The notes: generated by a model not told the origin, from the sequence alone. 32,000 bases of DNA from Petroclostridium xylanilyticum (GCF_002252565.1 NZ_NPML01000018.1:271907-303906), one strand, 5' to 3'. Numbered from the stretch's first letter, positions 1 through 30,806 are shown. A program made the numbers and translations.

Positions 1-452
1 AAATACCCCTGTAATTTGATGGCTTCTGTGCCAGTATGGTTCCCCAAATGTTTCTATATCTTCTTTGAAACACTCAGGGCAAAATCTAAAATACTTATTT
101 AAGGTAATGGAATTTGATATTAAACCTATTCTTATGTAGGAAACAGCACCCTCACCGTTTCTCATAGTTTGAATTATTTTTTTAGCACGTTCCTGAGGAA
201 TAAATGCTGCAAGAAAAGGAAATAAGGTGTGCTTAAAGATAAAGTATTCTGCTGTATATTTTGTATTTACAGGCATATTTTCGATTAATGCATCGAGTTG
301 TGTAGGCAGTTCCATTACTGCTATACAGTTCCTTGTTCCAAACAAGTCCTCAAAGTTATGAATTTCCTTTATGTTTCCACTTCGCATACAATAGCGTGCT
401 AACTACTATATAGTACTTCATCTGGATAAGGCACAGGAAAAAAGTTCACCAT
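1..452 (-). pseudogene. tniQ: TniQ/TnsD-family Tn7 target-selection protein, N-terminal ~150 codons. The 3' end lies beyond position 1. The frame is broken after codon 17.
   Basis: ATG at 452-450 follows GGAG (5-nt spacing) and overlaps the tnsC stop (ATGGTGA). It encodes MVNFFPVPYPDEVLYSS, the typical TniQ N-terminal motif, then hits TAG at 401-399. Shifting the frame by one nt at 402 continues LARYCMRSGN...FRFCPECFKEDIETFGEPYWHRSHQITGVF, open to position 1, with the TniQ/TnsD zinc-finger CxxC...H pattern. Confidence 0.65.
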
Positions 453-2137
453 ACCAACTCCATAGAAAAAATATCATCCTCAAAACTTATAATATATTCC
501 GCTTCCTTTAAGGACTTGTAAGCGCTTTTATTATCCTTTTTCCCCTGTTCAACAACAGTTCGGATATCAAGTGGATTTGCCGTACTCTGTTTTTCCTTTC
601 TTCCTTTTACCTTCCTTATTCCCTTTTTCTCTGGCTCTTCCTTCATGCCTTCATCTTTAAGCAGCGCCATCGCATCTTCCACCATGCCCTCTGCACTTAC
701 ATCCTGATTTTGAGAAAGCATGGTATCAATTATTTTCTGAGCCTTCTTAGCATCCATTCCTAAATCAACAAGTTTTAATACGGCTTCCTTTTTCTCCTCC
801 ATGAGGTTTTCCTGCTTCATTTTGTTTTGCCTTTTCTTTATTTCCTTTGCCCGCAAATCCAGGTTAATAGATTCTTTGGTTCGGGTTAAAAAGTCATCGA
901 AATCAATACCAGTCATGCAGATATCTTCATATTTAGCAATTTCTCTGATGTTGCCAGTCTTTAAGGCAGTCAGCATTGGCTGTACTAATTTTAAGTTTTC
1001 CTTCGCCGCCTTCCTAATAATATATGGAGTTATCTCTTCCTTTCCTGATGAAATGGCGTAGGCTTGAGCAATAGCATAGACTTTTTTTAATAAATCAGGT
1101 ATCCCCTGCGTTTCTTCATATAAAATACTGCTTATTTCAGGAGTAAAGGGAGTTTCTTTCCTCGTCCACTGGTAGTGCCATATAGAACTTACTAATAAAT
1201 CCCACACCTCATCTTTTTGAATCCTGTCGCATACCATATCGCCACCAAGACCTGACCCTCTTCGTGCCTGTCTGAAATCCCCCTGAAGTACCTTAACTGC
1301 CTTTGGGGTTCCCACTAAAATAACTGGCACCCCTACATTATTTACAAGGTTTACAAAGAAATTCAGCATTTTTTCGCTTCCTCCCGATTTAGCCATGCTT
1401 AAATGCTGGATTTCATCTATAATTAATATGCCTAAAGAGCAGTTTCTGACTACCTGATTCATCACCGTCATCATGGCATCTGCTGTTGCCCTTGTCCTCA
1501 TCATCTTTTGATAATAGTTGGTTCCCAATAGCCTGTCTATTTCTGAAAAAAATTCATACAGCAATCCCTTGATAGACCCGTCATGAGGACACTCTAATTT
1601 TACCCATACTACCTGATACGCTGAAAAAGGGATGCCTCTATACTCCGAATGAACAATAACTTGTGGATACATATTTAGTATACGCTTTAATGAAGATGTC
1701 TTCCCTAATCCCGATATGCCTATAAGAGTAAATCCAAAGGATGATGGATAAAATACGTCATCATCCTTTGAATTAACAGGATTCGTTCCATAGTAGTCTC
1801 TGCAAAAGCCCTGAGCCAGTTTACTTCCAAACGGATTTCGAAAAACATACCCCTGACGCAGGGCACGTGATATCTTTCTTTCCAGTTCTATGTTCATTGG
1901 TAAGGGCTGAAAGACTTGAAAGAGCCTGTCTACCATATAAATTCTGTAGTGGCTGTCCAACTTCCTTTCATTTTGGTGGTATTGAGGATAAAAAGCCAGT
2001 TTTTCTACCACTTTATGAGGAGAAAGAAGATTTGGAAGTGCTTCTATGAAAGGATTATCCTGATAATCTGGTATCACCTGTTCCTTATATTGTGCTTCTT
2101 CTGCCATGCTGCCATTAGGAATTATTATCTTCTTCAC
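446..2137 (-). CDS. tnsC: TnsC-like AAA+ ATPase, Tn7-family transposition regulator
   Basis: 563-aa ORF. Walker A is GISGLGKTS and Walker B is LGILIIDEIQHL. The N-terminal NPFIEALP motif is typical of TnsC/TniB. GTG start at 2137 follows GGAGG at 9 nt. It overlaps the tnsB end by 23 nt and the tniQ start. Confidence 0.85.
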   Translation of the reverse strand: MKKIIIPNGSMAEEAQYKEQVIPDYQDNPFIEALPNLLSPHKVVEKLAFYPQYHQNERKLDSHYRIYMVDRLFQVFQPLPMNIELERKISRALRQGYVFRNPFGSKLAQGFCRDYYGTNPVNSKDDDVFYPSSFGFTLIGISGLGKTSSLKRILNMYPQVIVHSEYRGIPFSAYQVVWVKLECPHDGSIKGLLYEFFSEIDRLLGTNYYQKMMRTRATADAMMTVMNQVVRNCSLGILIIDEIQHLSMAKSGGSEKMLNFFVNLVNNVGVPVILVGTPKAVKVLQGDFRQARRGSGLGGDMVCDRIQKDEVWDLLVSSIWHYQWTRKETPFTPEISSILYEETQGIPDLLKKVYAIAQAYAISSGKEEITPYIIRKAAKENLKLVQPMLTALKTGNIREIAKYEDICMTGIDFDDFLTRTKESINLDLRAKEIKKRQNKMKQENLMEEKKEAVLKLVDLGMDAKKAQKIIDTMLSQNQDVSAEGMVEDAMALLKDEGMKEEPEKKGIRKVKGRKEKQSTANPLDIRTVVEQGKKDNKSAYKSLKEAEYIISFEDDIFSMELVW

Positions 2138-4280
2138 CCTTCAGCACCTCCTTCTGCCTTTTAAAAAGCAACTGCAGGGTATTCATCCCTTCTTCAAAAT
2201 CTTCTTCATTAAATACGCTGCTGTCATAATCTCCTTCGTTATTTCCTAGTTTAAATGCTTCTTCCGCCCTTCTTGCTGTTTTTTCAATCTTCCTGTTTCC
2301 CCTTATGTTTTTTACCCTCTGCCTGTCGCTCTCTGCAGTACTTGTCTCCCTTTTATAATCTTCATCCGCCTGTTTTACGATATCTTCTATTTCTGCAATC
2401 AGTTTTGTTTTTGCTTGTGCCACCGAATCTTTACTTTTCTCTTTCTGCATTCTTTCTACCGCCAACAAATACTCTATTTCCTCAATTGCTTTATCTTTAT
2501 ATCTGGTACTGCTCTCTATTAAAAAACATTTCTCATATTCTTTGGGATTATCGCCACAGACATAAATGCAGTTCATATTGCGTGGGTCGTAACTTATCTT
2601 TACTCTCCACCTTCCATTTGTCCGTGCATTTGCAAATACATCATTTTTTAGCATGTTCGAAGATGCATAATACATATCTTTATATTTTATTCCTTTTTCA
2701 GTAACTACCGCTGTATCAGAAGGCATAAGGGCCAATTTAACAATGTCCTCCGATATACTCCGCAGGGTTCCTCCCCTGTTTGCAATTCCCCAGTTCCAAA
2801 GTTCAATGGGAATGCAGGGGACATCATCCTCCACCATCATCTCGTCCCGCTTATAGTAATCTAAGTGATAATAGTTATTGTGGTATAAAATGCACTTTAT
2901 CATAATCTGTGTAAACTGGTATAAATCAAGTTTTGCTTTCAGTCGGTAGTCCTTGTCCCCTCTTTCCCTGCCGTCTAAATCTACAGAACCAGGTAAAAAT
3001 GGCTTTACCCTCTCATTGGTAAGGCCAAAGAACCGTTCTACCGCCGATTTTAAGTCTGCACGGTATGGAGGTGTATTCTGCACTTTTATATTCAGCATGT
3101 TTATAAGGTTTTCAATATTTCCTCCTTCTAATTCCCCTCTATCAGCGATAATAGTCTCTGGTAAGTAGTGGACTGGCCAATCCTTTTCCTCTATTTCAAT
3201 ACCGTACTGCTTGCAGTATTCTACTTTATTCATAGTTGCATTTAAAAGCGCCATCATGGCACCAGTATAGGAGCCACTCTCCAGTCCTATATAGATTCCG
3301 CATATCATACGGCTAAACTTGTCAATTACTGCATAAATGGCAGGTCTGCCTATGACCCAGTTTCTATTAAACCTTGATACTAAGTAGACATCACCTACCT
3401 GGCAGTCTATTTCAAAAGTTCCAGGCTGCATTACTCCGCTTAAAGCACTTCCCGTTATGGCTCTGTACTGCTTTAGAAATTTCTTGTTGCTATAGCGGCT
3501 AGTTATCTCTTTTTTAATACTGCGCTCCTTCTCAAACCAATATCTGAACTGGCCAAAACTCGGAATCTCTGATTGAGGTTTTATGACAGGTATCTTTACG
3601 CCATTTTCTTCTTTAAAGCCGTCTGTAAAATATTCTTTCCTCATCAGTTCATATGTCAGCGTAAGAGAGTTTTTTGCTGTAGTGTAATAATATTTATTAA
3701 CAGCAATGCGGAAAATTCTTTTAATATCCTCGGTTACATTTACCCCTTCTCCATTTATGTCCTGATACTTCCTTGGCCTGCCCCTTTTGGCATTTCCAGC
3801 CTTCCTCTCTTTACCTTTTCCCCCGCAGTTCCTATAGTCTGGTATTAAGGCATTAGGTGTTTTCCCTCTTTTCCAGTACCGCTTAAGATACTCAAATACC
3901 CACAATTCACTTATATTATGAAATGCAGAAGCCTCACGAACTGCCTTCCTCCTGAAATGAGACTCAAAAATTTCTGGTTCGCAAGCCACCATATCCTTAA
4001 TCACTTTCCAAGCATTGTCCCTCATCTTTTTATGTTTTTCTGGAATATCTTCTTCTTTTAATATAACTGCAAGCGTGTCATCTTCTTTAATAACTGCCCT
4101 TCCATTTATCAGTGCACTATCTATGTCTGCAGTACTACGCAGATATGGGGCGCTGTTTTTATTAACATCAATAACATACACTAATTCTTCATCCATCCAA
4201 AGTACTCTTTCTATGCTGGTACTTTCACTTTCATCCTTCCATTCGATTAGCGAATTAACTGTATATTTTAACAACCTCAT
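2115..4280 (-). CDS. tnsB: TnsB-like DDE transposase (Mu/rve integrase-core family)
   Basis: Long ORF with an rve-type core (FEIDCQVGDVYLV, ADRGELEGG, KSAVERFFG). Start chosen at ATG 4280 (MRLLKYTV) behind AAGGAGGG, overlapping the tnsA end by 26 nt. The start could also be upstream, at up to 4358. Confidence 0.88.
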   Translation of the reverse strand: MRLLKYTVNSLIEWKDESESTSIERVLWMDEELVYVIDVNKNSAPYLRSTADIDSALINGRAVIKEDDTLAVILKEEDIPEKHKKMRDNAWKVIKDMVACEPEIFESHFRRKAVREASAFHNISELWVFEYLKRYWKRGKTPNALIPDYRNCGGKGKERKAGNAKRGRPRKYQDINGEGVNVTEDIKRIFRIAVNKYYYTTAKNSLTLTYELMRKEYFTDGFKEENGVKIPVIKPQSEIPSFGQFRYWFEKERSIKKEITSRYSNKKFLKQYRAITGSALSGVMQPGTFEIDCQVGDVYLVSRFNRNWVIGRPAIYAVIDKFSRMICGIYIGLESGSYTGAMMALLNATMNKVEYCKQYGIEIEEKDWPVHYLPETIIADRGELEGGNIENLINMLNIKVQNTPPYRADLKSAVERFFGLTNERVKPFLPGSVDLDGRERGDKDYRLKAKLDLYQFTQIMIKCILYHNNYYHLDYYKRDEMMVEDDVPCIPIELWNWGIANRGGTLRSISEDIVKLALMPSDTAVVTEKGIKYKDMYYASSNMLKNDVFANARTNGRWRVKISYDPRNMNCIYVCGDNPKEYEKCFLIESSTRYKDKAIEEIEYLLAVERMQKEKSKDSVAQAKTKLIAEIEDIVKQADEDYKRETSTAESDRQRVKNIRGNRKIEKTARRAEEAFKLGNNEGDYDSSVFNEEDFEEGMNTLQLLFKRQKEVLKGEEDNNS

Positions 4281-5112
4281 GCCCTCCTTTACCGCTTGTT
4301 TCAGGCAGGCGCAGTGAATAACCGCTCTCATTGAGATTGATAGGCTTATCCATATCAAGGGCTATCCTTTTTCCCGCAATTAAATGCTTAAACAGCAGTA
4401 ACCCTGCCCCCGCATCCAAGGAATAGTCCTTTTCAAATCTTGATATAATTTCCCTGATATTCTGCTGATTATCTATAAGCCTATATAAAAGTGCGTCTAG
4501 TAATTCATCAAAATCATCTTTAGAAAGCCCGTTGCAGTCGTCGGAAGTCATCGCCGAATGAATCCACTCTATATTTTTTGCCCTAACATCGTTGATGTCC
4601 TTATTTGTCACAATACCCCAGTTAATTCCTTTAGCAGTCCAGTATCTTCTTTCAATCTCCAGTTTTTCAATTGTAGTCTTTTTTGATAATTCCGATGCAT
4701 ATTTTATGCTTCTTGCAGCGAAATTCTTTTGTCCATCAGGATTTAACAGCGTAATTAAAAATGTTGTAGTTAATATGTAGGGTTCTTTTGTTTTCTTATC
4801 TATAAACTTATCCAGTTTTAAATCTGCAGTATCTTCCAGTACTGTCTCCAGGTCTAAAAGCGGATAATGTTCCCTAATATCTACTACTTTTTCTTCCCAG
4901 TCTAATAAATAAAAGTATTTCAATTGAGAGTCAGAGAAGAAGTGGTGTATTCGCTGTGTAGTCCAGCCAAATATCCTTGTTGCTCTTCCCATCGAAGGAT
5001 AATCTTGTATAGTAAGCCAGGGCTTATATTCCTTCCCTTCTCCCTGTCCCCTGCCTTCTTTTATCCATCTTTTTAACTTGTTTTCATCCCAATTTGTGTT
5101 TCTTTTGGCCAC
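4255..5112 (-). CDS. tnsA: TnsA-like endonuclease subunit of a heteromeric Tn7 transposase
   Basis: 285-aa ORF. GTG start at 5112 lies 7 nt after GGAGG. Restriction-endonuclease-like N-domain and the TnsA C-terminal motif (IEKLEIERRYWTAKGINWGIVTNKDI). It is first in the tnsA-B-C-tniQ order. Confidence 0.85.
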   Translation of the reverse strand: MAKRNTNWDENKLKRWIKEGRGQGEGKEYKPWLTIQDYPSMGRATRIFGWTTQRIHHFFSDSQLKYFYLLDWEEKVVDIREHYPLLDLETVLEDTADLKLDKFIDKKTKEPYILTTTFLITLLNPDGQKNFAARSIKYASELSKKTTIEKLEIERRYWTAKGINWGIVTNKDINDVRAKNIEWIHSAMTSDDCNGLSKDDFDELLDALLYRLIDNQQNIREIISRFEKDYSLDAGAGLLLFKHLIAGKRIALDMDKPINLNESGYSLRLPETSGKGGHEVVKIYS

Positions 5113-13227: not shown

Positions 13228-13238
13228 TTAATCATTAA

Positions 13239-13284: not shown

Positions 13285-13304
13285 AAACAAGGGGAGGTGA
13301 CAAC

Positions 13305-14084: not shown

Positions 14085-14099
14085 TGGAGGGAAGCGGAC

Positions 14100-16842: not shown

Positions 16843-16848
16843 TTATAT

Positions 16849-18734: not shown

Positions 18735-18748
18735 TTATATAATTGCGC

Positions 18749-18782
18749 AAAAGGTTGGACGTGTGATCATCCGGCCTTTTTT
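18749..18782 (+). terminator. Probable original ptx operon terminator, displaced by the IS insertion
   Basis: AAAAGGTTGG (loop of 12 nt) CCGGCCTTTTTT. The stem has two G-U pairs. Without the IS it would lie 8 nt after the ptxD stop region. Confidence 0.4.
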
Positions 18783-18860
18783 GGCTCCGCGAAAGTTCAT
18801 TGTTTAAATTATACAGCTTTTTTATAAGTTCCTTTAATAAAATGCTCTATTTTATTAATA

Positions 18861-19775: not shown

Positions 19776-19972
19776 TACTCCTGTCCTTCTTTTTACCTAT
19801 CCAAAGTATAGTCCTTAAGTGTTAAAGCTGGATAAAATAAGAAAATTCATTTAACCCCTGAATCCGTGATAGTTCTTCTGTGAAAAAGAAGAAAAAGAAA
19901 GGAAATCGCATCTCCGATGGTGAATTTTAAAGGAACCATGAATGATCCACTTTCACCTGCGAGGTGCTACAT

Positions 19973-20080
19973 ATGAGAATCCAATTCACCCAATCTAAGG
20001 AAATTCTGTTGACTACGCATGCTGGCCTGGCCACCGTCGGCGCCTTGCTTTCCCATACCCGATTGCCGCAGCGTCTCAAT
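19973..20080 (+). pseudogene. IS1380-family transposase, N-terminal 36 codons, cut off by the IS1634 insertion
   Basis: MRIQFTQSKEILLTTHAGLATVGALLSHTRLPQRLN continues in frame at 22010 (RSTVKGMENPIHSHGDV...) once 20081-22009 is removed. Confidence 0.65.
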
Positions 20081-22004
20081 CCCGAGTTCGACAGTTGCTA
20101 GGTAAATGAAATGCCCGTCATCCCTTGAGTAGACTGGATTTTCGGGCATTCATACGCAAAATGGCGTGTATCTATGCTCCAGGGTGGATTTCGAGGAACC
20201 TTGGAGGAGCTTCAATCCCAAGCGTATCAAAGGTTTTCCGTTGTTTGGCCGTCAGTTCCGTAGTCTGGTAGACGTCTCCGTTTTTCGAAGAAAAATGTCC
20301 GAGACCGATGCGATCCAGTTCCTTTCGCACGGCTGCCCAGGTCTCGCCGGTTTCCACTTCGACGATGCGCACGAGCAACAGGGCCAGCCAACAAAGCAGG
20401 ATATGCGCCCGAATGCGTTCTTCCAGGCGATGAAACATCGGGCGAAGTTCCAGGGTCGTCTTCAATGTACGGAACGCATCTTCCACATCAATGAGTTGCT
20501 TGTAGCCAAGCGCCACGTCTTCTGCGGATAACGTGTCATCCGAAGTCCGGATCAAATACTTGCCGTCATACTTTTCGGCCTCGCGTATCGCTTGCTTATC
20601 CAGCTTCAGCGTTCCATCCTTGAGCTGGCGCAAATATTTGCCGTAGGTCGGATGGGAACGCAGCTTACACGCCGCCTTCGTATGGGCGTGACCGCCCAAC
20701 GGCTTCAGTTCGTCCAACTCCGCTTGCAGGCGCTCGATCATCTGTTCACGGCGAAGACGATCCCGTTCGGCTTCTTTGGGGTTGTACACCAAGACATAGC
20801 GCTTGCGCGCTTCGCCGTCGCCGATGACGATGTCTTTGACCTGCAGGTTTTCTCGCACTTGGTGGTATCGCCCTTTCCGGCTCATCGCGGCCTCCGTCGT
20901 TTCTTTGCCGGATCGCATTTTTTCCCCGACGATATAATGGCCGCCTGTACGCTGCAACGTGCGCAAATTGTCTTCGGAGGAGAACCCTCGATCCATGACC
21001 GTAATGACTCTGCCCAGTTTCCATCCGACCAGGTCGCGTTTCACCTGCTCGACGACGGACATATCCGATGTATTCCCCGGCCATACCCATGAACGGATCG
21101 GAATGCCTTGACGAGTGACCGCCAGTCCAATGACCACCTGAACCAGATCCGGGCGTTTGTCCTTCGAAAATCCCTGCTTGCGCAAGGAGTCGTCTTCCGG
21201 CACATCGAACGGATCGACTTCGAAGTAGGTGGAGGTGGTGTCGAAGTAGAGCAAATCGACCTCCAGATTCAGTAAATCCGAGACGGAGCAATATACCTGA
21301 ACCTCCAGCTCCGATTGAACCTCCAGCAGGTCGTCCATCGCCCGGTACAGTTGCTGGCTGTTCACTTCCCTTACGCCCGGCAGGTACACATCGTCCCTTA
21401 CCCAATCTTCCATCGCCAGCTTGCTGGAAGGGTTCAGCGCGCGATTGGCCACCATGGCGAAGATCAGGCGTTCGATGGACGTTTGATGTTTGCGATCCGC
21501 GAACAGTTTTTCAAGGATGGCATCCAGGCCGATCTTGTGCCACAGTTGATGAAGCAGCCAGGCTCCACCCAAGCGTTTGCAGGACTGAAAGAGGAACTCC
21601 GCCGTCTGGCCGATCGCATGTTGCGCCTTCAGCGCCGCTTCCGGCGTCAGGTAACGAGAAATGCTTTGCACCAGGCGCTCCAGGACGGAGCGATCAACTT
21701 CATCTTCCCGGCCGAACGAGTAGATGACCTTGGCTTTGGCGTGTTTGGCGACGGGATCCCATACATTGTGCGCCAGCTGGAGGTAGGCGGTCGTGGATCC
21801 ATTTTTATTTTTACGAGAGACGCGACGAATATACATGCCTATATATTACCACAAATAACCCATATTTTACAAGAGTAAAAATACGAAAGCGTGTGCCTAT
21901 GGAAAAATGAGATTTTTTCTAGCTCCGCTCACAGAAAACCTTGCTGTTATGGGATTCTTGATTTTCTATATGCCCAAAAATGCCGATTTACTGTCGAACT
22001 CGGG
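20081..22004 (-). mobile_element. IS1634-family insertion sequence (element 2), nested in the IS1380 remnant
   Basis: Perfect 15-bp terminal inverted repeats, CCCGAGTTCGACAGT at 20081-20095 and its complement at 21990-22004. 5-bp direct repeat TCAAT at 20076-20080 and 22005-22009. Confidence 0.85.
20172..21836 (-). CDS. IS1634-family transposase
   Basis: 554-aa ORF starting MYIRRVSRKNKNGSTTAYLQLAHNVWD, the characteristic IS1634-family N-terminus. Confidence 0.8.
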   Translation of the reverse strand: MYIRRVSRKNKNGSTTAYLQLAHNVWDPVAKHAKAKVIYSFGREDEVDRSVLERLVQSISRYLTPEAALKAQHAIGQTAEFLFQSCKRLGGAWLLHQLWHKIGLDAILEKLFADRKHQTSIERLIFAMVANRALNPSSKLAMEDWVRDDVYLPGVREVNSQQLYRAMDDLLEVQSELEVQVYCSVSDLLNLEVDLLYFDTTSTYFEVDPFDVPEDDSLRKQGFSKDKRPDLVQVVIGLAVTRQGIPIRSWVWPGNTSDMSVVEQVKRDLVGWKLGRVITVMDRGFSSEDNLRTLQRTGGHYIVGEKMRSGKETTEAAMSRKGRYHQVRENLQVKDIVIGDGEARKRYVLVYNPKEAERDRLRREQMIERLQAELDELKPLGGHAHTKAACKLRSHPTYGKYLRQLKDGTLKLDKQAIREAEKYDGKYLIRTSDDTLSAEDVALGYKQLIDVEDAFRTLKTTLELRPMFHRLEERIRAHILLCWLALLLVRIVEVETGETWAAVRKELDRIGLGHFSSKNGDVYQTTELTAKQRKTFDTLGIEAPPRFLEIHPGA

Positions 22005-22009
22005 TCAAT

Positions 22010-22796
22010 CGCTCCACCGTGAAAGGAATGGAGAACCCGATTCACAGTCATGGCGATGTCATGACCAGCTATCTTGGCTTGCTTTGCCAAGGCAAAAGCG
22101 ACTTCGACCACATCGAACCTTTCCGAAAAGATCCCGTATTCCAAACCTGCCTCGGTGTCCGCAAGGTGCCGTCAAGCCCGACGCTCCGTCAGCGTCTGGA
22201 TGCCGCAGCTCAAACGATGAATGCCAACTGGAACGAGATCCTGCTTCAAGAATCCGCCGATCTGATTCGAAACGTAAAAGCACCTGTAACCGGACTGACA
22301 GCAGGCGAGCATACGGTGATTCCGCTGGATATCGATGTCTCTCCGTTCGATAACTCCGGTACGAAAAAAGAGGGTGTTTCGTTGACCTACAAAGGCACGT
22401 TCGGCTACGCCCCCATTTTCGCCTACCTCGGACAGGAGGGGTATAGCGTGAATGTGCAGCTTCGGGAAGGCAGCACGCACAGTCAGAAGGATGGCGCTGA
22501 TTTTCTGCGCGAAAGCATCCAGTATGCCCGGCGCATCACGAAAGAGCGCCTTCTCGTGCGGATGGATTCCGCTCACGACAGTCTGGAAAATCTGCAGGTG
22601 TGTCATGCTGAGCCAGAGGTCGATTATATCATCAAGGTCAATCTGCGCAATACATCCAAGGAAAGTTGGCTACGGATCGCCGAAGACAAGGGCATGGCCT
22701 GTGAGCAGCGCCCCGGCAAGACGGAATACATGGGCGTGATCGCCTTTCCCGAAAAAGGCTTCGATCAAGCCCTTCGTCAAGTGTTTCAAGTGATCG
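22010..22796 (+). pseudogene. IS1380-family transposase, central part, 3'-truncated by ISLre2 copy 2
   Basis: GLLCQGKSDFDHIEPFRKDPVFQTCLGVRKVPSSPTLRQRLD is an IS1380-type block. The ORF runs straight into the IS end at 22797. Confidence 0.65.
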
Positions 22797-24503
22797 GTGT
22801 GAGTAAAATATTTGTGGGTGACATTCAGGAATGATTCCCCGACGAGGGTTGCGAACTTTTGTTCGCGACGCTCGTCGGGGCCACCAAGCGAAGCGCGGTA
22901 GAAAAAAGCAAATGTCATGCAAAAAGGACTCTCTCCCTGCTATGATGGTGATGACCAACATCCATAAAACAGGAGGGAGAGAGTCCATGAAACATCTTAC
23001 CACAGAATGGCCTTTATTAAAAGAGCTGGAGGAACAATTAGTCAGAACTCTTCAAAAGGTGTTCGCTGTCTTGTTGGCGGCCCTTTTGGAGGAGATTGAT
23101 CAACAACTGGCGGAAGCGCGGGACAAGCGCCGGTATCAGCTGAAAGACAAACGGCCGACCACGATCCAAACGCTGTTTGGAGAAGTGACGTTTCGACGGA
23201 ACTACTACTATGATCGGCAGGCGGGGGCGTATACCTTCTTGCTGGATGCCGAACTGGGCTTTGATGGAGCGCAGTCGATCAGCCCTTGCCTCGAGGAAAC
23301 GGCGGTCGAGTTGGCCGTAGAGTGCTCTTCCTACCGCAAAGCGGCCCGTACGTTGGAGTCGATCGTGGGGTATGCGGTCATGAGCCACGAGGCGATTCGC
23401 CAACTGGTGCTGGAGGCCCCTGTCTCGCTGCACCACCCTGTTTCCAAACGGCACGGCCGAGTGCTGTTTGTGGAGGCGGATGGGCTGTTCATTTCCCGCC
23501 AGGGGAAAGGGAAACGGGCGAAAGAAGAGAAAATCCTGGCGGTTCACGAGGGATGGAAACGAAACGGTTCGCAGCTCAAGCTCGTGAACCGGCGCCACTA
23601 CCTCCATGAAGGGGTGGGAGACGTGTGGGAACGGTTTGAAGAGTGGCTGATGAACGAATATGCCTATGACCCGTGCCGGGACCTTTTGATCATCAACGGC
23701 GACGCGGCGTCGTGGATCACAGCCTGCCGGGAGTATTTTGGAAAGCGAGCCTGCTTTCAGCTGGATCGATTTCATGTGGCGCGGGAGCTGCGCCAATGCC
23801 TCTCCGGCCATCCGCGTTGGCGGGAGGTGCGGAAGAAGCTGGCGAAACAAGACGAAGAGGGGCTTCTGGTGGAGCTGAACAGCGCGGTCGGCACGTTGGG
23901 GGACGAAGGCAAAGAACAACAGCTGGCCGCCTTGATTCGCCGGATCGAGTCGATGCCGGGATGCATCCGGGACTATCGGGAGTGGCTGTCGGAGCAAGGG
24001 GTGGAGACGACCGGCATGCGTCCGATGGGCCACGCCGAGAGCGTGATGAGCCGGTTTGCGCATCGGGTGAAATCCCGCCGCAGCTGGAAAGACCAAGGGC
24101 TTCGGGCGTTTCTGAGGGCGATGGCAGCCCGAATCGACGGGATCGGGTGGAGAAAGGGACGGTGGGAGGAGCAAGAGCCCCAGTCGGCCGTCTCGGCCTC
24201 AACAAAGTCCAAGCGGATCGAACAGGCCAAACGGAAGGCCGGACGGTTATGGGCAGATGTGGTGCGTCAGAATCTACCGTGTCTGCAGCGGTCATCCGGG
24301 ACGCCGATCCATCAAGCGTTGTCGGCGCTCCGGGATGGTGGTTGGGTGTAAAAAAATGGAATATCGTATCATCGCCTCAAGATGAGGGATGAGAGTCCGA
24401 AAGCGCTTACGATATTAATTCCTGAAAATGGTTCGCTAACTAGTGATTGACAACGCCCGTAGTGAACCGAAAAAATGTTCTCCACAAAGTCTTGACTGAC
24501 TCG
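22797..24503 (+). mobile_element. ISLre2-family insertion sequence, copy 2 (identical to 9617-11323)
   Basis: Constant offset of 13180 bp to copy 1. All six-frame ORFs translate identically in both copies. Confidence 0.8.
22987..24351 (+). CDS. ISLre2-family (UPF0236) transposase
   Basis: Identical to the 9807-11171 product. Confidence 0.75.
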   Translation: MKHLTTEWPLLKELEEQLVRTLQKVFAVLLAALLEEIDQQLAEARDKRRYQLKDKRPTTIQTLFGEVTFRRNYYYDRQAGAYTFLLDAELGFDGAQSISPCLEETAVELAVECSSYRKAARTLESIVGYAVMSHEAIRQLVLEAPVSLHHPVSKRHGRVLFVEADGLFISRQGKGKRAKEEKILAVHEGWKRNGSQLKLVNRRHYLHEGVGDVWERFEEWLMNEYAYDPCRDLLIINGDAASWITACREYFGKRACFQLDRFHVARELRQCLSGHPRWREVRKKLAKQDEEGLLVELNSAVGTLGDEGKEQQLAALIRRIESMPGCIRDYREWLSEQGVETTGMRPMGHAESVMSRFAHRVKSRRSWKDQGLRAFLRAMAARIDGIGWRKGRWEEQEPQSAVSASTKSKRIEQAKRKAGRLWADVVRQNLPCLQRSSGTPIHQALSALRDGGWV

Positions 24504-24736
24504 TAATTCATCCCCCATATGGGCTTTTGATTTTCAAATACCACTTCTTCACCAATAAAATCAGCACTCCCGAAGTAAGAGTCTATGTACAGTAAATCCC
24601 CTTCACCATAATGTAAATCCTTTGAGTTCGGTCTTGAAGATGCAGAAAGAACTCCGTCCCTGGCATATGTATTCCTTTTTGCTCTGACCAGAAATCCTTT
24701 CAAAGCCAATTCTGTGCAGTTCATTGCCTTCGTCAC
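24504..24736 (-). pseudogene. DUF5680-like gene, N-terminal half
   Basis: (M)TKAMNCTELALKGFLVRAKRNTYA...KPIWGMNY ends at the TAATTCAT duplication and continues at 9616. Confidence 0.8.
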
Positions 24737-24751
24737 CCTTCCTGTTTATTC

Positions 24752-25012
24752 TCACTCTTTCTTTATTCTTTTTTTAATCATTGAAATAGTAATCAATGCT
24801 GTCCCAATTATAAGCAGGCTTAAGTACATAAACAACTGAAATGGTCCACTGCCAAAATGACTGAATGGATATGGTCCATTTATAATCCAAATATATCTTT
24901 CATAATTGCCATGAATAAAATAATATAAAATTATCGGACTAATTGTAAAGATAAATTCTAAGCCCAGCAAAAAATCAGATATATATTTTATTGACGAGTA
25001 TTTCCCCATCAT
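24752..25012 (-). CDS. Small membrane protein, about 86 aa
   Basis: ATGATG at 25012/25009 lies 5 nt after AGGGGG. Two or three hydrophobic segments. The stop is 15 nt upstream of the DUF5680 start. Confidence 0.55.
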   Translation of the reverse strand: MMGKYSSIKYISDFLLGLEFIFTISPIILYYFIHGNYERYIWIINGPYPFSHFGSGPFQLFMYLSLLIIGTALITISMIKKRIKKE

Positions 25013-25071
25013 CCTGCCCCCTTGCACCATAAACACATAAAATAAACATTACATAACATTAAAGAATGACT

Positions 25072-25290
25072 TTACCAGTCATTCCATTCATCAAAGCCTT
25101 CCCTTGCACCTGTAAAGAAAAACTCTGTATGCCTGCATTTAGGGCAGACATATACGTCAAAAGTCAAATGCTCTTCAATATCAAATAATGCTCCCAATAT
25201 TCCCCTATTATTATCCTGGGAATCAAAGCGGTATTCTTTCAGATACTTCATTTGCTCTTTACACCTTAAACACTCAAACTGTTTTTCCAT
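25072..25290 (-). CDS. Zinc-ribbon protein, 72 aa
   Basis: CLRC...CPKC pairs (CxxC-N36-CxxC). GGAAGGAG RBS 9 nt upstream. Confidence 0.6.
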   Translation of the reverse strand: MEKQFECLRCKEQMKYLKEYRFDSQDNNRGILGALFDIEEHLTFDVYVCPKCRHTEFFFTGAREGFDEWNDW

Positions 25291-25452
25291 TTTAAGTTAG
25301 ACTCCTTCCACTTTATTCACATTAAAATCATTCTATTTTTAATTATAATATAAAATGCTTATATCCGTGCTATTTTACAGTTATATTTTTATTTTTTATT
25401 TGACGTGTAAAGAATAGCATATGTTTCATTCGTCCTAACGTCTAAGAGTGCT

Positions 25453-25671
25453 TTATCCAATATAATTCCCCATGTCTTTCTTTAAATCATCAATATTTCT
25501 ATAGTAACAATATATAAAAGTATCATTAATACCATCTTCACTATTTTCTATACAAAGATTTATTCTATAAAATATATCCAGCCGCTCATCAAAGCCTTTA
25601 TCAACTTGCACGCCATTAAGTATAAAAGTTTCCAATACTGTAAAATTCCCAAAAATCGTTACGCCCTTCAT
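25453..25671 (-). CDS. Hypothetical protein, 72 aa
   Basis: ATG lies 7 nt after GGAGTG. No family recognised. Confidence 0.45.
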   Translation of the reverse strand: MKGVTIFGNFTVLETFILNGVQVDKGFDERLDIFYRINLCIENSEDGINDTFIYCYYRNIDDLKKDMGNYIG

Positions 25672-25781
25672 GGTTAATCACTCCATTCAGTTTTTATTTG
25701 AAGGTTATTATATAAATAGTACCTGTAAAATCAACATTTGGAGTGATTTTTTATAAATCAGTTTCCTAAATCAAAATCAAC

Positions 25782-25842
25782 ATTATTATCAAAAAAGGTT
25801 CTAGTAGCCAACTCATATACTAAAACCTTTTTTGATAATAAT
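25782..25842 (-). terminator. 19-bp perfect-stem hairpin immediately after the KAP NTPase stop codon
   Basis: 25782-25800 (ATTATTATCAAAAAAGGTT) is the exact complement of 25824-25842, with a 23-nt loop. The stem ends 2 nt from the stop codon at 25845. Confidence 0.55.
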
Positions 25843-25844
25843 TG

Positions 25845-28800
25845 TTAATCTTCAGTTCCTGTTTTAGAATATTTCTCAATAATGTCTTTAAATTCACTTT
25901 TATTTATACCACGCATTTTATATAGTCCAGAATTAATAAGTACGTAAATTGCTTTCTCTCTTATCTCTTCATTATTTTTAGCAATATTATATAATATCTT
26001 CGCTAACTTATAACTCATTCCTCTTGGAAATTTTTTTTGATTATAATACAAAGTTAATGTGTCAAGTGCTGCTTTCTTTTGAGCCAATCCGCCTTCAAGT
26101 AAATAAATAAAAGTATTATTAATAATATCATTTGTTTTATTTGCTACTAAATACTTATTATTATCTTTTAATGCAACAAATAGTTGAAGTAGGTTATTAA
26201 TTTCAATTTCTGATGAAGTGTTTTTAATCTTGTCCTCTATTAGTGAATAATAATACATTCTTTCTTCTTCACTATCTATTTTCTCTGATACTGTATTTAA
26301 AGTATATTGATATTTATTATCAACCTTACCCTCTATAAAGAGTTTAATAGTGTTTTCCCTTACACTTCTTTCATTAAACAATAAGTTATTGAACACATTC
26401 TTCTGAACTTCCTTTTCGAATATTGAATACATAGATAAAATAATTCTTAATTCAACATCTTTATTAGTAAATTCCAACTTTGAAGTTATCTCGCACAAGT
26501 TATTTATTTTGTCAGTCATGTTAAATTTTTTATTAATAAAATTAAATACCGCATCTAAAAGTTGATTTATAGTCTCACTTCCATAGTAAATTAATATTTC
26601 AATAATCTTTTGAGGGTTATTATTTATCTCTTTACAATCTTTTGAGATAATATTGGATAAAATTCTTTGTCTAATATTATTATCAGATAATATAGTATAA
26701 TTTTGGATAAACTGCTTAACAGCAAAATCATATATTAGATTACTTTCTATTTTACTTAAAATACTAGAAAAATATTGATTTTTTAAATCATCAACATTAA
26801 ATAAATGCATTAAATCATTATATATAGTATAGGTTAGTTTAATAATTTCCTCGTTCACAGGATTAGGGTTCCTTTGTTGAGAATTTGCTATATAAATCAA
26901 ACTATTTGACAATTGATTTATTTTATCAGGTTCTATTATGAATGAGCATTGCCTTAGTAACGAATATAAAAACTCCATTATGTTTTTATTAATTTGATTG
27001 TTTTGATTATTTAATAAGTTCAGTATGTTTTGCATAATAGTATTTCTTTGTGTAGAATTAATATATTCTTTTACACCATTGATGTATTTAACTAAATATT
27101 TGCTACTATTACTTGTTATTTCTAAAGAATTTATAACTTGTACTATATTTTGAACTATTCTATCAATGTTTCCATATACTTTAACAATTTCACAAACCGC
27201 ATTTATATAACTTCTTATAAATAATTCTTTTTCCTTAACATAATATTCACATAACCTAGTAACTAGTTTCATCTTACTTTCATTATCAATTTTATATTCT
27301 GCCCCAATTTTTATTATCAATTTGAATATCTTATTACATGTATCTTCATCTTTCCATTTATTTGCTTCCAATGATAAAGCATCAACTATGTTTGTTGCAT
27401 ATTTGCTTATATCTTTATCCAAATTTAGAATACTATCTAAAATTTCAATACAAGTAGATGATAATTCCGAATTATCATCATTTATATAATTTAGTATTTT
27501 TTCAGTTAATAAGTTATGATTATCATCAACCAACTTTTCGCTAATATTTAATAAATACCTTGATATTATCTTTTTATCATCCTCTGAGTATTCTTCTTTA
27601 AAATCCATTATTGTTTCAAAAATATCTCCCGAAAAATATTTTTCTAATGATTTTTGGTTATCATTTATCTTACTAATTATCCGTAGTACTTCTTTATAGT
27701 CTTTTTCATATAATTTAACTAAAACTCTGTCCAAGAGGTTAATATTAAATGATAAATTACTATTCATGCAAATAGTATTCAATACATTATTCGTATAATT
27801 TAAATTATCTAGTGCCAGCGTATTTACATACTCATTAATTATATCGGAATAGTAGTTGTAATGCTCGGTTATACTAATATAATTCACAACGCCATTTATA
27901 CTAAACTGTTTTATATTATTTTTATATTGCTGTATCTTATTTAGAATAATACTGGCAAATTGGTACTTAATTTCTTCTGGAATTAACCTAACAATATTTA
28001 AATCGGATAGGCTACTAAGAATATTTATCATATCTAAGTTTTCGTATTTATCTATTCTCAGTAATAAATTATTAAATATTTCGATTCTTTCAGCATGAGA
28101 CTTAGTCTTGTTTATTTCAGTGACAAAACCATTAATATCTTTATTAATTATTAAATTCTCAAGATTCTCTACATATTCATCAGAATAAGAAATATTTAAC
28201 ATGTCTTGAGATAAATAAATATAAGTTTTAATATGCTCACGTGAAACAATATAATTGCTTGTATAATACAAGTACTCTATTGCTTCTTTAAACTCATCCT
28301 TAACTCTAAACTCCTGCTCTTCTTCAACACAATAATATTTACTTAAAATATTAATTTGGGACTCTTCAAAGTCATTATCTCCTCTTCTTACTCTCTCAAC
28401 GTATTCTAATAATCTATTATTATTTACTAAATCATAATAAAGTTGTGTAAACTCCGTCTGCAATACAGTTATTTTAGCCAGAAATTTTAAGTCCAATGTA
28501 AAATTTGCACTAAAATAATTATCTTGTAGTCTTTTTTTAAAAATTTCGTATAACAAAATAAAGTTATTTAATAGTATTTTTACTTTTCTTGGGCTCATAA
28601 CATTTTTATAAATTAGAACATGAACAATCTCCTTTAATTCTTCTTTAGGAACATCTATATCTATACTACTTAGCAATTTAATTGCGTAGTCTCTAATTTT
28701 TTCTTGTCTAAATGGAGGTATAGTCAATTTGATTTGAAAGATTTTATCTAAATAATCTGTATCATCTATTTTTTCTTCAATTAGGGCTTTTTTCAAAACT

Positions 28801-29627
28801 GCATCATCACAGGCAATAATAAAAATACAATTTTTTATATTCATAAACGTTTTTATTGTCTCTAATACTTCAATGACTTTTTTGCTCTGACATCTATCCA
28901 AATCATCAACAAAAACAATAATTTTATTATTATTTTTGACAAAATTATTTATAAGTTTTTTAAATGACTTTTCAAATTGCTCTAAACTCTCTAAGTTTTC
29001 ATTTGACTTTGTTATTGTTACATTGGAAGTATAGTCTTTCAATATTTTAACTACATAATAAATAACCCCAACAACAATAGCATTGAAAAATAACGGTATT
29101 GACATTTGTCCTTCTATATGAAGCCATTTAAATAAAAATAAATAAAAAATCACTTCAGCAATTAATATTATAATAGATGAACATAGCAATCCTTTAAACA
29201 TTTCCTTAATGCTTTTTTTAAGGTTACCTTCACTTTTTAGAAATGACTGATTATTTATCTGTCGATTTCCTTTTATATAAAGTGATTCTATCAATTCATC
29301 GACAGGCTCGCCCGTTTGTTTTGCTACTTCTAGAAGAAACTTTCTTTTTAAAGATATAGGCTCATTTGAATATTTCCAGCATTCAAACATAACTGTTTTG
29401 TATTTCTTTGAATTATCGATTCGATTTTTTAATAAGTTTATAATTGTAGTTTTTCCGACTCCCCACTTCCCAAATAAACCAATATTTAATTGCTCATTTT
29501 GACAGTTGTCAATAATATTCTTTATAACGTCCACATAGTGTCTATGACCGAATTCATCACCATTTATATTTCCTATTGGCTCATCAACAAAGACTCTAAT
29601 ATTATTATCTATTTTTGCGTCTTTCAT
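25845..29627 (-). CDS. KAP-family P-loop NTPase with a membrane insert and an ~850-aa helical-repeat C-terminal extension
   Basis: Walker A GKWGVGKTT, FECWKY block, two hydrophobic helices inserted in the NTPase domain (LLCSSIIILIAEVIFYLFLF, IPLFFNAIVVGVIYYVV), and Walker B IIVFVDDLDRC. The remainder is an N/I/K-rich helical repeat region. Confidence 0.8.
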   Translation of the reverse strand: MKDAKIDNNIRVFVDEPIGNINGDEFGHRHYVDVIKNIIDNCQNEQLNIGLFGKWGVGKTTIINLLKNRIDNSKKYKTVMFECWKYSNEPISLKRKFLLEVAKQTGEPVDELIESLYIKGNRQINNQSFLKSEGNLKKSIKEMFKGLLCSSIIILIAEVIFYLFLFKWLHIEGQMSIPLFFNAIVVGVIYYVVKILKDYTSNVTITKSNENLESLEQFEKSFKKLINNFVKNNNKIIVFVDDLDRCQSKKVIEVLETIKTFMNIKNCIFIIACDDAVLKKALIEEKIDDTDYLDKIFQIKLTIPPFRQEKIRDYAIKLLSSIDIDVPKEELKEIVHVLIYKNVMSPRKVKILLNNFILLYEIFKKRLQDNYFSANFTLDLKFLAKITVLQTEFTQLYYDLVNNNRLLEYVERVRRGDNDFEESQINILSKYYCVEEEQEFRVKDEFKEAIEYLYYTSNYIVSREHIKTYIYLSQDMLNISYSDEYVENLENLIINKDINGFVTEINKTKSHAERIEIFNNLLLRIDKYENLDMINILSSLSDLNIVRLIPEEIKYQFASIILNKIQQYKNNIKQFSINGVVNYISITEHYNYYSDIINEYVNTLALDNLNYTNNVLNTICMNSNLSFNINLLDRVLVKLYEKDYKEVLRIISKINDNQKSLEKYFSGDIFETIMDFKEEYSEDDKKIISRYLLNISEKLVDDNHNLLTEKILNYINDDNSELSSTCIEILDSILNLDKDISKYATNIVDALSLEANKWKDEDTCNKIFKLIIKIGAEYKIDNESKMKLVTRLCEYYVKEKELFIRSYINAVCEIVKVYGNIDRIVQNIVQVINSLEITSNSSKYLVKYINGVKEYINSTQRNTIMQNILNLLNNQNNQINKNIMEFLYSLLRQCSFIIEPDKINQLSNSLIYIANSQQRNPNPVNEEIIKLTYTIYNDLMHLFNVDDLKNQYFSSILSKIESNLIYDFAVKQFIQNYTILSDNNIRQRILSNIISKDCKEINNNPQKIIEILIYYGSETINQLLDAVFNFINKKFNMTDKINNLCEITSKLEFTNKDVELRIILSMYSIFEKEVQKNVFNNLLFNERSVRENTIKLFIEGKVDNKYQYTLNTVSEKIDSEEERMYYYSLIEDKIKNTSSEIEINNLLQLFVALKDNNKYLVANKTNDIINNTFIYLLEGGLAQKKAALDTLTLYYNQKKFPRGMSYKLAKILYNIAKNNEEIREKAIYVLINSGLYKMRGINKSEFKDIIEKYSKTGTED

Positions 29628-29698
29628 AATCTCCCTGACCCCTTTGCTAATATAACTTATATATTATTTAATTTGACATTAATCTTCCATTTCCTCTT

Positions 29699-29810
29699 TT
29701 ATCCACAAAATTTTTCAACAAAAACGGGATTTTGTGGAGAATATAATAAAAATCAGATGCTACATTGCCTTAATTTGATGCAATAAGCCCTTAAAAATTG
29801 TCCACAAAAC
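29699..29810. promoter_or_regulatory. Three (T)TCCACAAAA motifs (DnaA-box-like) in the divergent KAP/recombinase intergenic region
   Basis: TTATCCACA at 29699-29707 is a perfect DnaA-box consensus. An inverted copy TGTGGAGAA lies at 29733-29741, and the two form a 10-bp inverted repeat (29702-29711 with 29729-29738). TTGTCCACA at 29798-29806. TATAAT at 29742-29747. Confidence 0.35.
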
Positions 29811-29915
29811 TTTTTAGTCTCCTTTTTAAGCCTGAAATCAACCTGCTATATTAACTTGAAATTCACCTTAGATATTCTTAAAATCATGGTAAAGTTTATG
29901 GAAAGGAGTTTAGTC

Positions 29916-30806
29916 ATGGATACGAAGGAATATTACTTGGATGCTTTTGTAGATTATTTAAATAAAAGCGATAAATCATCTGGTACCATATTAACCTACA
30001 CTGCCAATATCAAAGGCTTTATCAAATACTACGTTGAATCATATGGTGAGGAGTTTATCCCAGAAAATGTAATCATGATGGACTTAAGGAACTATCGAAA
30101 TTATCTCCTGAATATCAAGCGTCAAAAAGCATCTACTATTAATAATAAGATTGCTTCGCTAAAAGAATATTTTTTCTTTTTAATGAGTAATAGCATTATT
30201 AAAACTAATCCAGCAGAAAATCTAAAGAAAATACGAACCAACAAACCTGTTGCTCCAAAAAGTTTTTCTGACACTGAATTTAAGAAAATTAAGCGATATG
30301 TATATAGAAGTCAAAAGGATTTATGGATAGTAGTTTTTGAGTTGTTATCTAAAACTGGAGTCAGAGTAAGTGAACTTATAAATATCCGCCTTGCTGACAT
30401 AACCATAAATGAACGTTCTGGAAATCTAAGAGTTATAGGTAAAAACCAGAAAGAAAGGAATATTCCTCTGCATTTAGATGTCAGAAAAGCAATTACTGCA
30501 TATATGGAAGTTAGAGATAGAATGTCCATATCATCTGATTATCTTTTAATAAGCGAAAGAAAACGACCCTTTACCCGTTCTGGAATCTTTAAAATGCTAA
30601 AGCGTTGGGAAAACGACACGAATATTAAAATTCACCCTCATATGTTCAGGCATCACTTTGCAATTCAAGTTCTTAACACACCCAATGCTGATATCAATAC
30701 TGTACAGTACCTCTTAGGACATGAAAGTATAGAAAGTAGCGCTATTTATCTTAAAGTGAGACAGGAGGATTTGGAAGAAAGTATTAATGCTATATCAGAT
30801 TATTAG
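29916..30806 (+). CDS. Tyrosine recombinase/integrase (XerC/D-like)
   Basis: ATG 29916 lies 7 nt after AAAGGAG. An N-terminal SAM-like core-binding domain is followed by catalytic blocks GVRVSELINIRLADI, HPHMFRHHFA and LLGHESIESSAIY. Confidence 0.85.
   Translation: MDTKEYYLDAFVDYLNKSDKSSGTILTYTANIKGFIKYYVESYGEEFIPENVIMMDLRNYRNYLLNIKRQKASTINNKIASLKEYFFFLMSNSIIKTNPAENLKKIRTNKPVAPKSFSDTEFKKIKRYVYRSQKDLWIVVFELLSKTGVRVSELINIRLADITINERSGNLRVIGKNQKERNIPLHLDVRKAITAYMEVRDRMSISSDYLLISERKRPFTRSGIFKMLKRWENDTNIKIHPHMFRHHFAIQVLNTPNADINTVQYLLGHESIESSAIYLKVRQEDLEESINAISDY

Follow-up and report, generated by a model that had tools for sequence, protein, structure and literature searches.

KAP-type P-loop NTPases are components of defence systems, QatA and PifA among them, and the family, reportedly described by Aravind et al. 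in 2004 as the KAP family P-loop NTPases, has an established topology at the cytoplasmic face of the membrane, with membrane helices inside the P-loop domain as a feature of its prokaryotic and Kidins220 subset. Tmn is said to have been presented by Gao et al. in 2020 as a 'transmembrane NTPase' and to be KAP/YobI-like. This transmembrane NTPase defence gene (bioRxiv 10.1101/2022.08.21.504612) has been joined by KAP NTPases that carry varied C-terminal extensions of unknown nature, shown in 2026 to be anti-phage proteins; in four of them (EF_KAP and three metagenomic proteins), whose C-terminal regions are unrelated, the protection given to E. faecalis against phages depends on both Walker B and the C-terminal part. 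EF_KAP is the only stand-alone KAP-fusion defence protein with a mechanistic test, and it is reported to be non-abortive (PMC13552941). The subject of the present analysis is a gene on a 32,000-nucleotide stretch of Petroclostridium xylanilyticum (GCF_002252565.1 NZ_NPML01000018.1:271907-303906; hereafter the window) that encodes a KAP-family NTPase of 1260 amino acids (aa). The protein most likely adds a rare new member to the single-protein KAP NTPase defence factors and does not represent a new kind of system, its notable traits being a very large HEAT solenoid and a recurrent linkage to Tn7-like elements. The probability that the gene product works by itself as a membrane-tethered NTPase in immunity or conflict, with mobile islands carrying the gene as their cargo, is put at about one half, while a defence or conflict role of the KAP protein as such is judged somewhat more probable, given the mobile and defensive contexts of the gene and the experiments on other KAP proteins.

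The window protein showed the tested features of the KAP family and of the class of stand-alone KAP NTPases joined to an unknown region, a class that is set by architecture. As in the EF_KAP class, a single gene adjoining recombinases on mobile DNA in Bacillota, and lacking a conserved partner gene, encodes predicted membrane helices together with a KAP NTPase whose Walker B motif is intact and a C-terminal region without a recognisable domain. The differences concern the size of that region (322 aa in EF_KAP against a HEAT-like post-NTPase part of approximately 760-900 aa here, the two being compared by description only), the membrane helices (one N-terminal and one within the NTPase domain in the EF_KAP model, both inside the domain here), and the class marker, which is a small serine recombinase for EF_KAP compared to a tyrosine recombinase and Tn7-like genes at this locus. 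An earlier note on this DNA had described the gene as not an obvious member of commonly listed systems, and this held in so far as its PADLOC and NCBIfam matches were at the domain level only, but the class of KAP NTPases with unknown C-termini had been validated by 2026 (PMC13552941) and the novelty is therefore lower than was assumed.

Comparison with the other described systems placed the likeness in the NTPase module. Tmn, a defence protein that also stands alone, carries two transmembrane helices behind Walker A as well as alpha-superhelical regions for which a role as interaction surfaces has been proposed, but it is known from enterobacterial plasmids beside Gabija, whereas no Gabija, Septu, or PrrC genes were present at the window locus. 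No Tmn-named model was found among the PADLOC matches of the window protein, and a YobI/Tmn-like identity was rejected because the YobI-ATPase domain (PF20693) had no match at E≤1 in the Pfam search; the same domain matched remote relatives such as protein P0009. PifA of the F plasmid, also a KAP-family NTPase with a single-protein exclusion function on a mobile element, gave the best PADLOC defence match (E=1.5e-28), but only over profile positions 158-322 of 720, the tail of the window protein being unrelated, and identity as PifA was rejected since the match is confined to the NTPase part. In tblastn searches of plasmids no match covered ≥80% of the query, and Escherichia was absent from the named genera of the organism summary, in which 7 of the 17 genera were not named. 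Identity as QatA or QatABCD was rejected on a score below the cut-off (PADLOC E=2.6e-21; NCBIfam 97.4 bits compared to an equivalog cut-off of 600) and on the absence of qatB, qatC (QueC-like), and qatD (TatD-like) genes from the window and from every orthologous locus. The PADLOC candidate PDC-S20 aligned residues 23-477 with profile positions 18-434 of 464 (E=4.4e-23, a modest 80 bits), such that the NTPase and the helical module that follows it correspond to a whole PDC-S20-type protein. PDC-S20 is itself only a candidate, has approximately 460 aa and no solenoid, and the window protein is 2.7 times longer; the likeness is at the module level only.

The KAP open reading frame (ORF) is real, intact, and under selection. 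It starts with ATG preceded by a GGGAG ribosome-binding site, and its base composition (A 0.43, T 0.33) would lead to a stop approximately every 10 codons, so that the chance of 1260 stop-free codons at the gene's own composition is 7e-60; the sequence-level statements of the earlier note were all borne out. Eight full-length orthologues (P0001-P0008) shared 95, 90, 83, 82, 63, 60, 39, and 33% identity with the window protein, and ratios of nonsynonymous to synonymous substitution rates (dN/dS) of 0.33, 0.18, and 0.18 against the 95%, 83%, and 60% orthologues indicated purifying selection. In the latter two comparisons the NTPase head had a dN/dS of approximately 0.11 and the distal tail one of 0.19-0.23; against the 95% orthologue the values were 0.25 and 0.52, respectively. 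The DNA around the gene had a GC content of approximately 23% compared to 45-61% in the middle of the window.

The N-terminal part matched Pfam KAP_NTPase almost end to end (profile positions 3-292 of 293, E=2e-39, 136.1 bits with a cut-off of 20). In an alignment of nine sequences G53, G56, G58, K59, and T60 of Walker A and D241, D242, L243, D244, R245, and C246 of Walker B were invariant and, with both motifs intact, the P-loop NTPase is predicted to be catalytically complete. Two hydrophobic segments between these motifs (residues ~142-172 and 174-197; Kyte-Doolittle maxima 2.59 and 2.04), separated by few residues, form the putative membrane hairpin, whose helices were placed at 132-168 and 177-200 in a structural model of residues 1-1200. 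All elements of the KAP signature named in the earlier note, i.e. the two Walker motifs and the two-helix insert in the P-loop domain, were therefore found. The position of the hairpin was kept in 9/9 clade members and also in most remote giant KAP proteins, although its sequence was the least conserved of the protein (20-48% identity in distant orthologues) and the nine-sequence alignment contained no conserved polar or glycine pattern within it. The very short connecting loop leaves no room for an extracellular sensor.

Conservation extended beyond the Pfam domain into the proximal helical module. In the two most distant orthologues (P0007 and P0008), identity was 42-58% in the NTPase core (residues 1-140 and 201-365), 45-49% in the proximal module, 20-29% in the hairpin (141-200), and 21-32% in the distal tail. 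This head-level conservation through residues 366-500, along with the PDC-S20 match to 23-477, indicates that the NTPase module reaches residue ~480-500. The division into a KAP head and a helical tail made in the earlier note was thus retained, but with the border at ~480-500 rather than 400 and a solenoid of ~760 aa rather than ~850. Within the proximal module, a loop at residues ~452-489 (window ~28161-28274) with the pattern …YI.LSQD..N..Y.DEYVE.L was denser in invariant residues than any other stretch beyond the NTPase motifs, with Y452, S457, S462, E464, K467, Y469, I470, L472, S473, Q474, D475, N478, Y481, D483, Y485, V486, E487, and L489. The loop was partly non-helical and of low confidence in both models (predicted local distance difference test, pLDDT, below 50 at residues 455-481) and may be a hinge or an interaction motif.

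The tail was rich in isoleucine (12.9%), asparagine (12.7%), leucine (10.3%), and lysine (9.0%), and an AlphaFold2 model of residues 361-1260 built from a nine-sequence alignment was all-alpha with approximately 55 helices (mean pLDDT 84.2), in agreement with the N/I/K-rich helical repeats proposed earlier. No significant Pfam match occurred past residue 362, a sequence search of the PDB with the tail returned no match, and Foldseek against the PDB retrieved SF3B1, CAND1, karyopherins, and the HEAT subunits of condensin as the best structures (E~1e-7). Their template modelling scores (TM-scores) of ~0.25 denote generic repeat similarity only, and all matches were HEAT-type solenoids with no enzymatic fold among them. 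The solenoid evolves about twice as fast as the NTPase (dN/dS ~0.2 versus 0.11 in the head). The model of residues 1-1200 again gave a confident solenoid together with a poorly predicted head (pLDDT 40-70; predicted TM-score, pTM, 0.45) whose order of secondary structures fits a P-loop fold. Differences between the window protein and its 95%-identical orthologue P0001 were concentrated in one solenoid patch, with 17 of 59 falling within residues 761-840. The dN/dS of the patch was ~0.5 in three comparisons and dS was likewise raised against the L007 copy. Positive selection was rejected, as dN/dS did not exceed 1 and dS was raised too; recombination or relaxed constraint is the more economical explanation, and the pattern suggests a recombination tract.

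The clade defined by this tail was very rare. HMMER searches with the tail among 120 listed KAP homologues detected it in P0001-P0008 and in none of the other 112, against which single-sequence searches gave nothing either, and a profile search of 1.84 billion cluster representatives found the whole tail in three clusters (at 50% identity) among 16 matches in total at E≤0.001. A Clostridiales metagenome-assembled genome carried a copy with 100% identical protein and 98.4% identical DNA over window positions 24593-30805, the complete chromosome of Haloimpatiens lingqiaonensis KCTC 15321 (locus L009; NZ_CP172402.1) encoded the 83%-identical protein at about 163.7-167.5 kb, and four further KAP loci were recovered from metagenomes. 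No relative was found in viral contigs, and plasmid and phage searches gave matches at the NTPase level only.

Profile-profile comparison extended the relationship to other giant KAP proteins. The tail of group gA (proteins such as P0009, P0010, and P0027; ~1300 aa) was homologous over 802 columns (99.8% probability, E=4e-28) at an identity of only ~13%, a relation to which HMMER was blind and that this comparison alone revealed. Group gC showed partial homology over the first 300 columns, and group gB, which includes proteins of Pseudomonas aeruginosa and Paenibacillus agilis, was weakly related (84.6% probability). The giant gA and gB proteins resemble the window protein in length (~1300 aa) and in the position of the hairpin, and the gB proteins of P. 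aeruginosa (L033-L035) and P. agilis (L036), of ~1350 aa, are annotated merely as 'KAP family P-loop NTPase fold protein'. These remote genes, too, mostly had neighbours of a conflict type, including a restriction-modification system and an integrase beside P0010, a ROCO protein and an rve integrase beside P0027, a Schlafen-group-3-like helicase near prophage lysis genes beside the P. aeruginosa protein, and a VgrG/PAAR(DUF4280)/SUKH-3 polymorphic-toxin-type locus around the Paenibacillus protein.

The KAP gene was the sole gene conserved across approximately 10 different neighbourhoods, in which the neighbours varied and were mobile or defensive, and it alone was common to the window, L005, L006, L009, L028-L031, and L032. 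With its own conserved promoter region and terminator, it behaves as a stand-alone gene, as had been proposed. Recognised defence genes adjacent to it across the loci were bSEFIR, a dGTPase, HEPN RiboL-PSP, DruE, and DUF1848, and the cargo of Tn7-like elements is known to be rich in defence systems (PMC8649781). The survey of orthologous neighbourhoods that the earlier note had called for returned mobile islands, Tn7-like genes, recombinases, insertion sequences (IS), and defence genes (bSEFIR, dGTPase, DruE), and no orthologue examined lay in a housekeeping context, the finding that the note had named as a refutation.

In the close clade (window, L007, L008, L009/L001, and L028-L030) the gene lay in a common module of ~4.25 kb (window 25470-29723) that spans from 96 bp upstream of the KAP start to the end of a 72-aa ORF. 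A tyrosine recombinase was always present on one side of this module, and on the other side a variable slot of 0.65-4.5 kb was followed by a conserved 153/169-aa gene and, where the contig reaches, by tnsA-tnsB-tnsC-tnsD. The slot contained an AadA_C-type nucleotidyltransferase in L009, a second tyrosine recombinase in L029, a 1353-aa NTPase-like protein in L028 whose P-loop is weakly NPHP3_N/STAND-like and which matched no defence model, and in the window a Zn-ribbon protein, a small membrane protein, DUF5680, DUF1848, a 175-aa protein, and a NYN protein. Distant orthologues were found after tnsABCD, bSEFIR (E=1e-53), and DUF3908 in L004/L032, 52 bp past tnsE in the same orientation in L006, and in L005 with a defence-type dGTPase (E=9e-74) on one side and a HEPN RiboL-PSP protein on the other. 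In L031 (37-7373) an IS21 element (IstA/IstB) truncates the gene at residue ~751, and beyond this element lie a fragment of a Druantia-type DruE helicase (E=1e-104) and a weak HNH-like protein; this inactivated copy indicates that the gene is dispensable.

The position of the KAP gene relative to the Tn7-like genes varied, being after tnsD in L004/L032, after tnsE in L006, and upstream of tnsA in the window and L009. A DUF1444 gene occurred upstream of tnsA in the same orientation in L032 (532-1287, 0.85 kb away) and in L009 (1918-2667, 14 kb away), with the recombinase-KAP island of L009 between the two, and DUF1444 may be the TnsD attachment-site gene. From this difference in spacing, the Haloimpatiens island occupies a hotspot beside the Tn7-like element, while the KAP gene is on the cargo side in L032 and L006. 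When the Tn7-like ends were sought upstream of tnsA by eye, through repeats, and with short-word BLAST, only noise was obtained.

In the proposed mechanism the hairpin would anchor the protein at the cytoplasmic face of the membrane and the solenoid would act as a recognition surface, binding an invader protein or complex by wrapping of the karyopherin or CAND1 type. Binding and hydrolysis of nucleoside triphosphate (NTP) by the KAP domain would then turn invader binding into an output, tentatively a non-abortive block in which the NTPase captures, remodels, or takes apart the bound component at the inner membrane; this last step is a possibility given less than even odds. An output of this kind has been proposed for KAP NTPases in general. 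It is favoured here because Pfam, the structural model, and Foldseek identified no nuclease, protease, TIR, or other effector domain in the protein and because the hairpin is conserved like an anchor rather than a pore, and it fits EF_KAP, which needs Walker B and the C-terminal region and is non-abortive.

An abortive output similar to that of PifA is unlikely by comparison. In such a scheme the solenoid would sense an invader and trigger NTP-dependent oligomerisation, upon which the hairpins would form a leak or pore, collapsing the membrane potential and killing the cell. PifA-dependent exclusion of phage T7 comes with membrane damage, PifA was the best defence match, and the hairpin is the only non-globular element able to act directly in a protein that has no other effector domain; the partial coverage of the PifA profile and the anchor-like character of the hairpin, with its low conservation, short loop, and missing polar or glycine pattern, speak against it, as does the non-abortive report for EF_KAP (PMC13552941). 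The abortive infection suggested in the earlier note received no specific support and was neither supported nor refuted; of its reading as a defence or conflict module, the membrane KAP NTPase, its stand-alone nature, and the mobile and defensive contexts were supported, and the recombinase link is positional only.

Still less likely, the protein could serve the mobile element itself, either by excluding rival plasmids, integrative and conjugative elements, and transposons or by acting at the membrane to maintain the transposon or to select its target. Tn7-like tns genes lie within or next to most of the clade's distinct arrangements, the L006 gene follows tnsE closely in the same orientation, and no relative was found in viral contigs, while phage genomes gave NTPase-level matches only. 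Canonical Tn7 transposition, however, is not known to need such a protein, L005 had no tns genes within the 14 kb examined, and the location of the KAP gene either upstream of tnsA or downstream of tnsD/tnsE at distances of 0.05-6 kb is typical of cargo and not of a core transposition gene. The generic richness of Tn7-like cargo in defence systems also counts against this alternative (PMC8649781).

The least likely alternative is a membrane scaffold outside any conflict, in which the KAP NTPase would organise a host membrane complex and hitch-hike on mobile DNA, an option that draws on the analogy with eukaryotic Kidins220/ARMS, which scaffolds signalling proteins, on the generic protein-binding nature of HEAT solenoids, and on the resistance-nodulation-division (RND) metal-efflux genes beside the remote relative P0009, but that is contradicted by the extreme rarity and patchy distribution of the whole tail, a GC content of 23% in the gene compared to 36-60% in its surroundings, the lack of a conserved partner gene in any neighbourhood, close contexts that are all mobile or defensive, and the dispensability shown by the IS21-inactivated copy.

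Several points nevertheless weigh against the reading of the gene as a cargo-borne immune factor with a capture or remodelling output. Judged by PifA, the output would be abortive and damage the membrane, and the rarity of the clade, which fits accessory cargo, provides little statistical power. Guilt by association rests on approximately 10 arrangements, many of them on short metagenomic contigs, and at least one remote relative, the gA protein P0009, has metal-efflux genes as neighbours. Finally, the low-confidence head leaves the coupling of head and tail without support from the model. A wider proposal, offered more as speculation than as expectation, is that KAP proteins of ~1250-1360 aa (this clade, gA, and possibly gB) could represent one unrecognised and scattered superfamily of membrane-tethered immune receptors, in which a karyopherin-like HEAT solenoid would wrap a specific invader protein and the KAP NTPase would act as a mechanical membrane switch, the low-GC clade having specialised as cargo of Tn7-like elements and of the adjacent variable hotspot.

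The features of the window are listed in Table 1. Its tns genes, identified by Pfam TnsA N and C domains, Mu-transpos_C, and TniB/AAA_22, were 72-78% identical at the aa level to those of L009 and L001 and had the same order and orientation relative to the KAP gene. UPF0236-type and DDE transposases lie between the tns and KAP genes. This intervening DNA included a 14.9-kb insertion resembling a composite transposon (9617-24503, 45-61% GC), with a 1707-bp UPF0236/ISLre2-type IS at either end, in direct orientation and 100% identical (9617-11323 and 22797-24503) and flanked by an 8-bp target-site duplication, TAATTCAT, at 9609-9616 and 24504-24511. Its cargo comprised ABC-transporter genes, a LysR regulator, a second UPF0236 transposase, and DDE IS elements. 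Excision of the insertion restored a 156-aa ORF that matched DUF5680 end to end (positions 1-104 of 104, E=1.4e-33), compared to positions 1-29 only for the uncorrected truncated ORF. Before this recent event the KAP and tnsA genes would have been ~5.8 kb apart on one continuous low-GC island, and the IS elements were rejected as part of the KAP module. The mobile context described in the earlier note was accordingly upheld for the recombinase beside the KAP gene and for the Tn7-like TnsA/B/C, whereas the IS elements belong to one recent, unrelated insertion and the link to the recombinase is positional only.

Further observations were made on the island. A DDE_Tnp_1_4 ORF (21980-22834, + strand) covered profile positions 54-249 of 435 only and stopped where the second UPF0236 IS begins (22797), such that one IS had apparently inserted into another. 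The low-GC island also carried the NYN-domain protein (6604-7563, +) and the DUF1848 protein (8470-9306, -); the latter matched the PADLOC model 'RTasDUF1848 (DRT)' with E=6e-54 and had no reverse transcriptase adjacent. In L009 a distantly related NYN-like gene came directly after tnsD. A small hydrophobic ORF (~5415-5610, +) with a strong AGGAGG ribosome-binding site, situated between the 153-aa gene and tnsA, was followed by a perfect 12-bp hairpin terminator (5610-5647), and this stretch (~5415-5647) had ~70% DNA identity in L001 and L009.

Downstream of the KAP gene, the strong terminal hairpin reported earlier was confirmed as two 25-nt arms of 96% complementarity (25782-25806 and 25818-25842), folding as RNA into a stem of ~32 bp with -33.4 kcal/mol (z=-9.8; 0 of 200 shuffles as good). 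A consensus, GC-based terminator scan found nothing at the KAP stop codon because the stem is AT-rich, and the hairpin was recovered by repeat search and folding. Its core was kept with G·U changes in L007, L001, and L009 and was absent from distant orthologues. Upstream, the 5' region was conserved in L007, L008, L028, L001, L009, L029, and L030, and DNA homology with L001 and L009 ended at 29723, 96 bp from the start codon. All three window copies of TTTTGTGGA occurred inside 108 bp (29702-29809) of the recombinase-KAP intergenic region, compared to 0.62 expected per whole window, and the proximal tandem pair TTTTGTTGA-N4-TTTTGTGGA, conserved in orthologous loci, may be an operator or a recombinase-binding site.

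The two genes flanking the KAP gene were each considered as a partner and rejected. The 72-aa ORF had 72-78% aa identity in L007, L028, L029, L030, and L009, with a strongly conserved N-terminal half (VTIFGNFTVLETFMLNGVQVDKGFDERLDIFYR) and no family match, but its frame is broken by a stop codon in Haloimpatiens (L009) and distant orthologues do not have it as a neighbour; it is therefore not an obligatory partner and is probably not essential to the system. The recombinase kept its position and orientation (L001 103-1011, L007 1-852, L009 8842-9756, and L028 252-1124), but the window copy shared only 39-43% identity with those of L001, L009, L007, and L028, and over all loci with KAP proteins of 83-95% identity the recombinases were 35-43% identical, with an intergenic homology breakpoint around window 29723-29856. 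Its alleles have been swapped and, on this comparison of sequences, it is a positional neighbour of the mobile island without co-evolution with the KAP gene.

Table 1. Location of the KAP gene, its protein regions, and the surrounding features; coordinates refer to the window unless another locus is named.
Feature	Position	Strand	Basis or remark
Complete gene, 1260-aa KAP-family NTPase (including stop codon)	25845..29627	-	ORF list, full-length orthologues
KAP_NTPase P-loop domain, residues 30-362	28542..29540	-	Pfam PF07693
Walker A GKWGVGKT, residues 53-60	29448..29471	-	Motif search
Walker B IVFVDDLDRC, residues 237-246	28890..28919	-	Motif search
Two-helix hydrophobic hairpin, residues ~142-197, between Walker A and Walker B	29037..29204	-	Kyte-Doolittle
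Proximal helical module, residues 366-500	28128..28532	-	Conserved like NTPase core
HEAT/ARM-like alpha-solenoid, residues 501-1260, putative recognition/scaffold region	25848..28127	-	AlphaFold2
Hypervariable solenoid patch, residues 761-840	27108..27347	-	Differences from P0001
Conserved 5' region: GGGAG ribosome-binding site, promoter-like ATGTCA…TATATT, tandem TTTTGTTGA/TTTTGTGGA repeat	29628..29723	-	
AT-rich hairpin starting 3 nt past the stop, then moderately U-rich tract; probable intrinsic terminator	25782..25842	-	
72-aa ORF travelling with the KAP gene in the close clade	25453..25671	-	Promoter-like site of its own at 25734-25707
Tyrosine recombinase, divergent from the KAP gene	29856..30806	+	Phage_integrase E=2.6e-33, SAM-like N-terminal domain
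Variable slot	5656-25452 (minus composite insertion); L009 14160-15296; L028 5590-9886; L029 4301-6213; L030 4436-5080		
Tn7-like tnsA (4255-5112), tnsB (2115-4358), tnsC (446-2137); far anchor of the island	446..5112	-	

If confirmed as a defence gene, this locus would extend the KAP NTPase class with a much larger and structurally interpretable C-terminal module, and it would add another type of cargo to the Tn7-like elements of Clostridia. The confident solenoid of ~760 aa with its defined patch would provide a tractable case for how KAP fusions recognise a target and transmit the signal. Confirmation would also flag the KAP proteins of ~1300 aa, including those of Pseudomonas aeruginosa, that defence models register only at the level of the NTPase domain.

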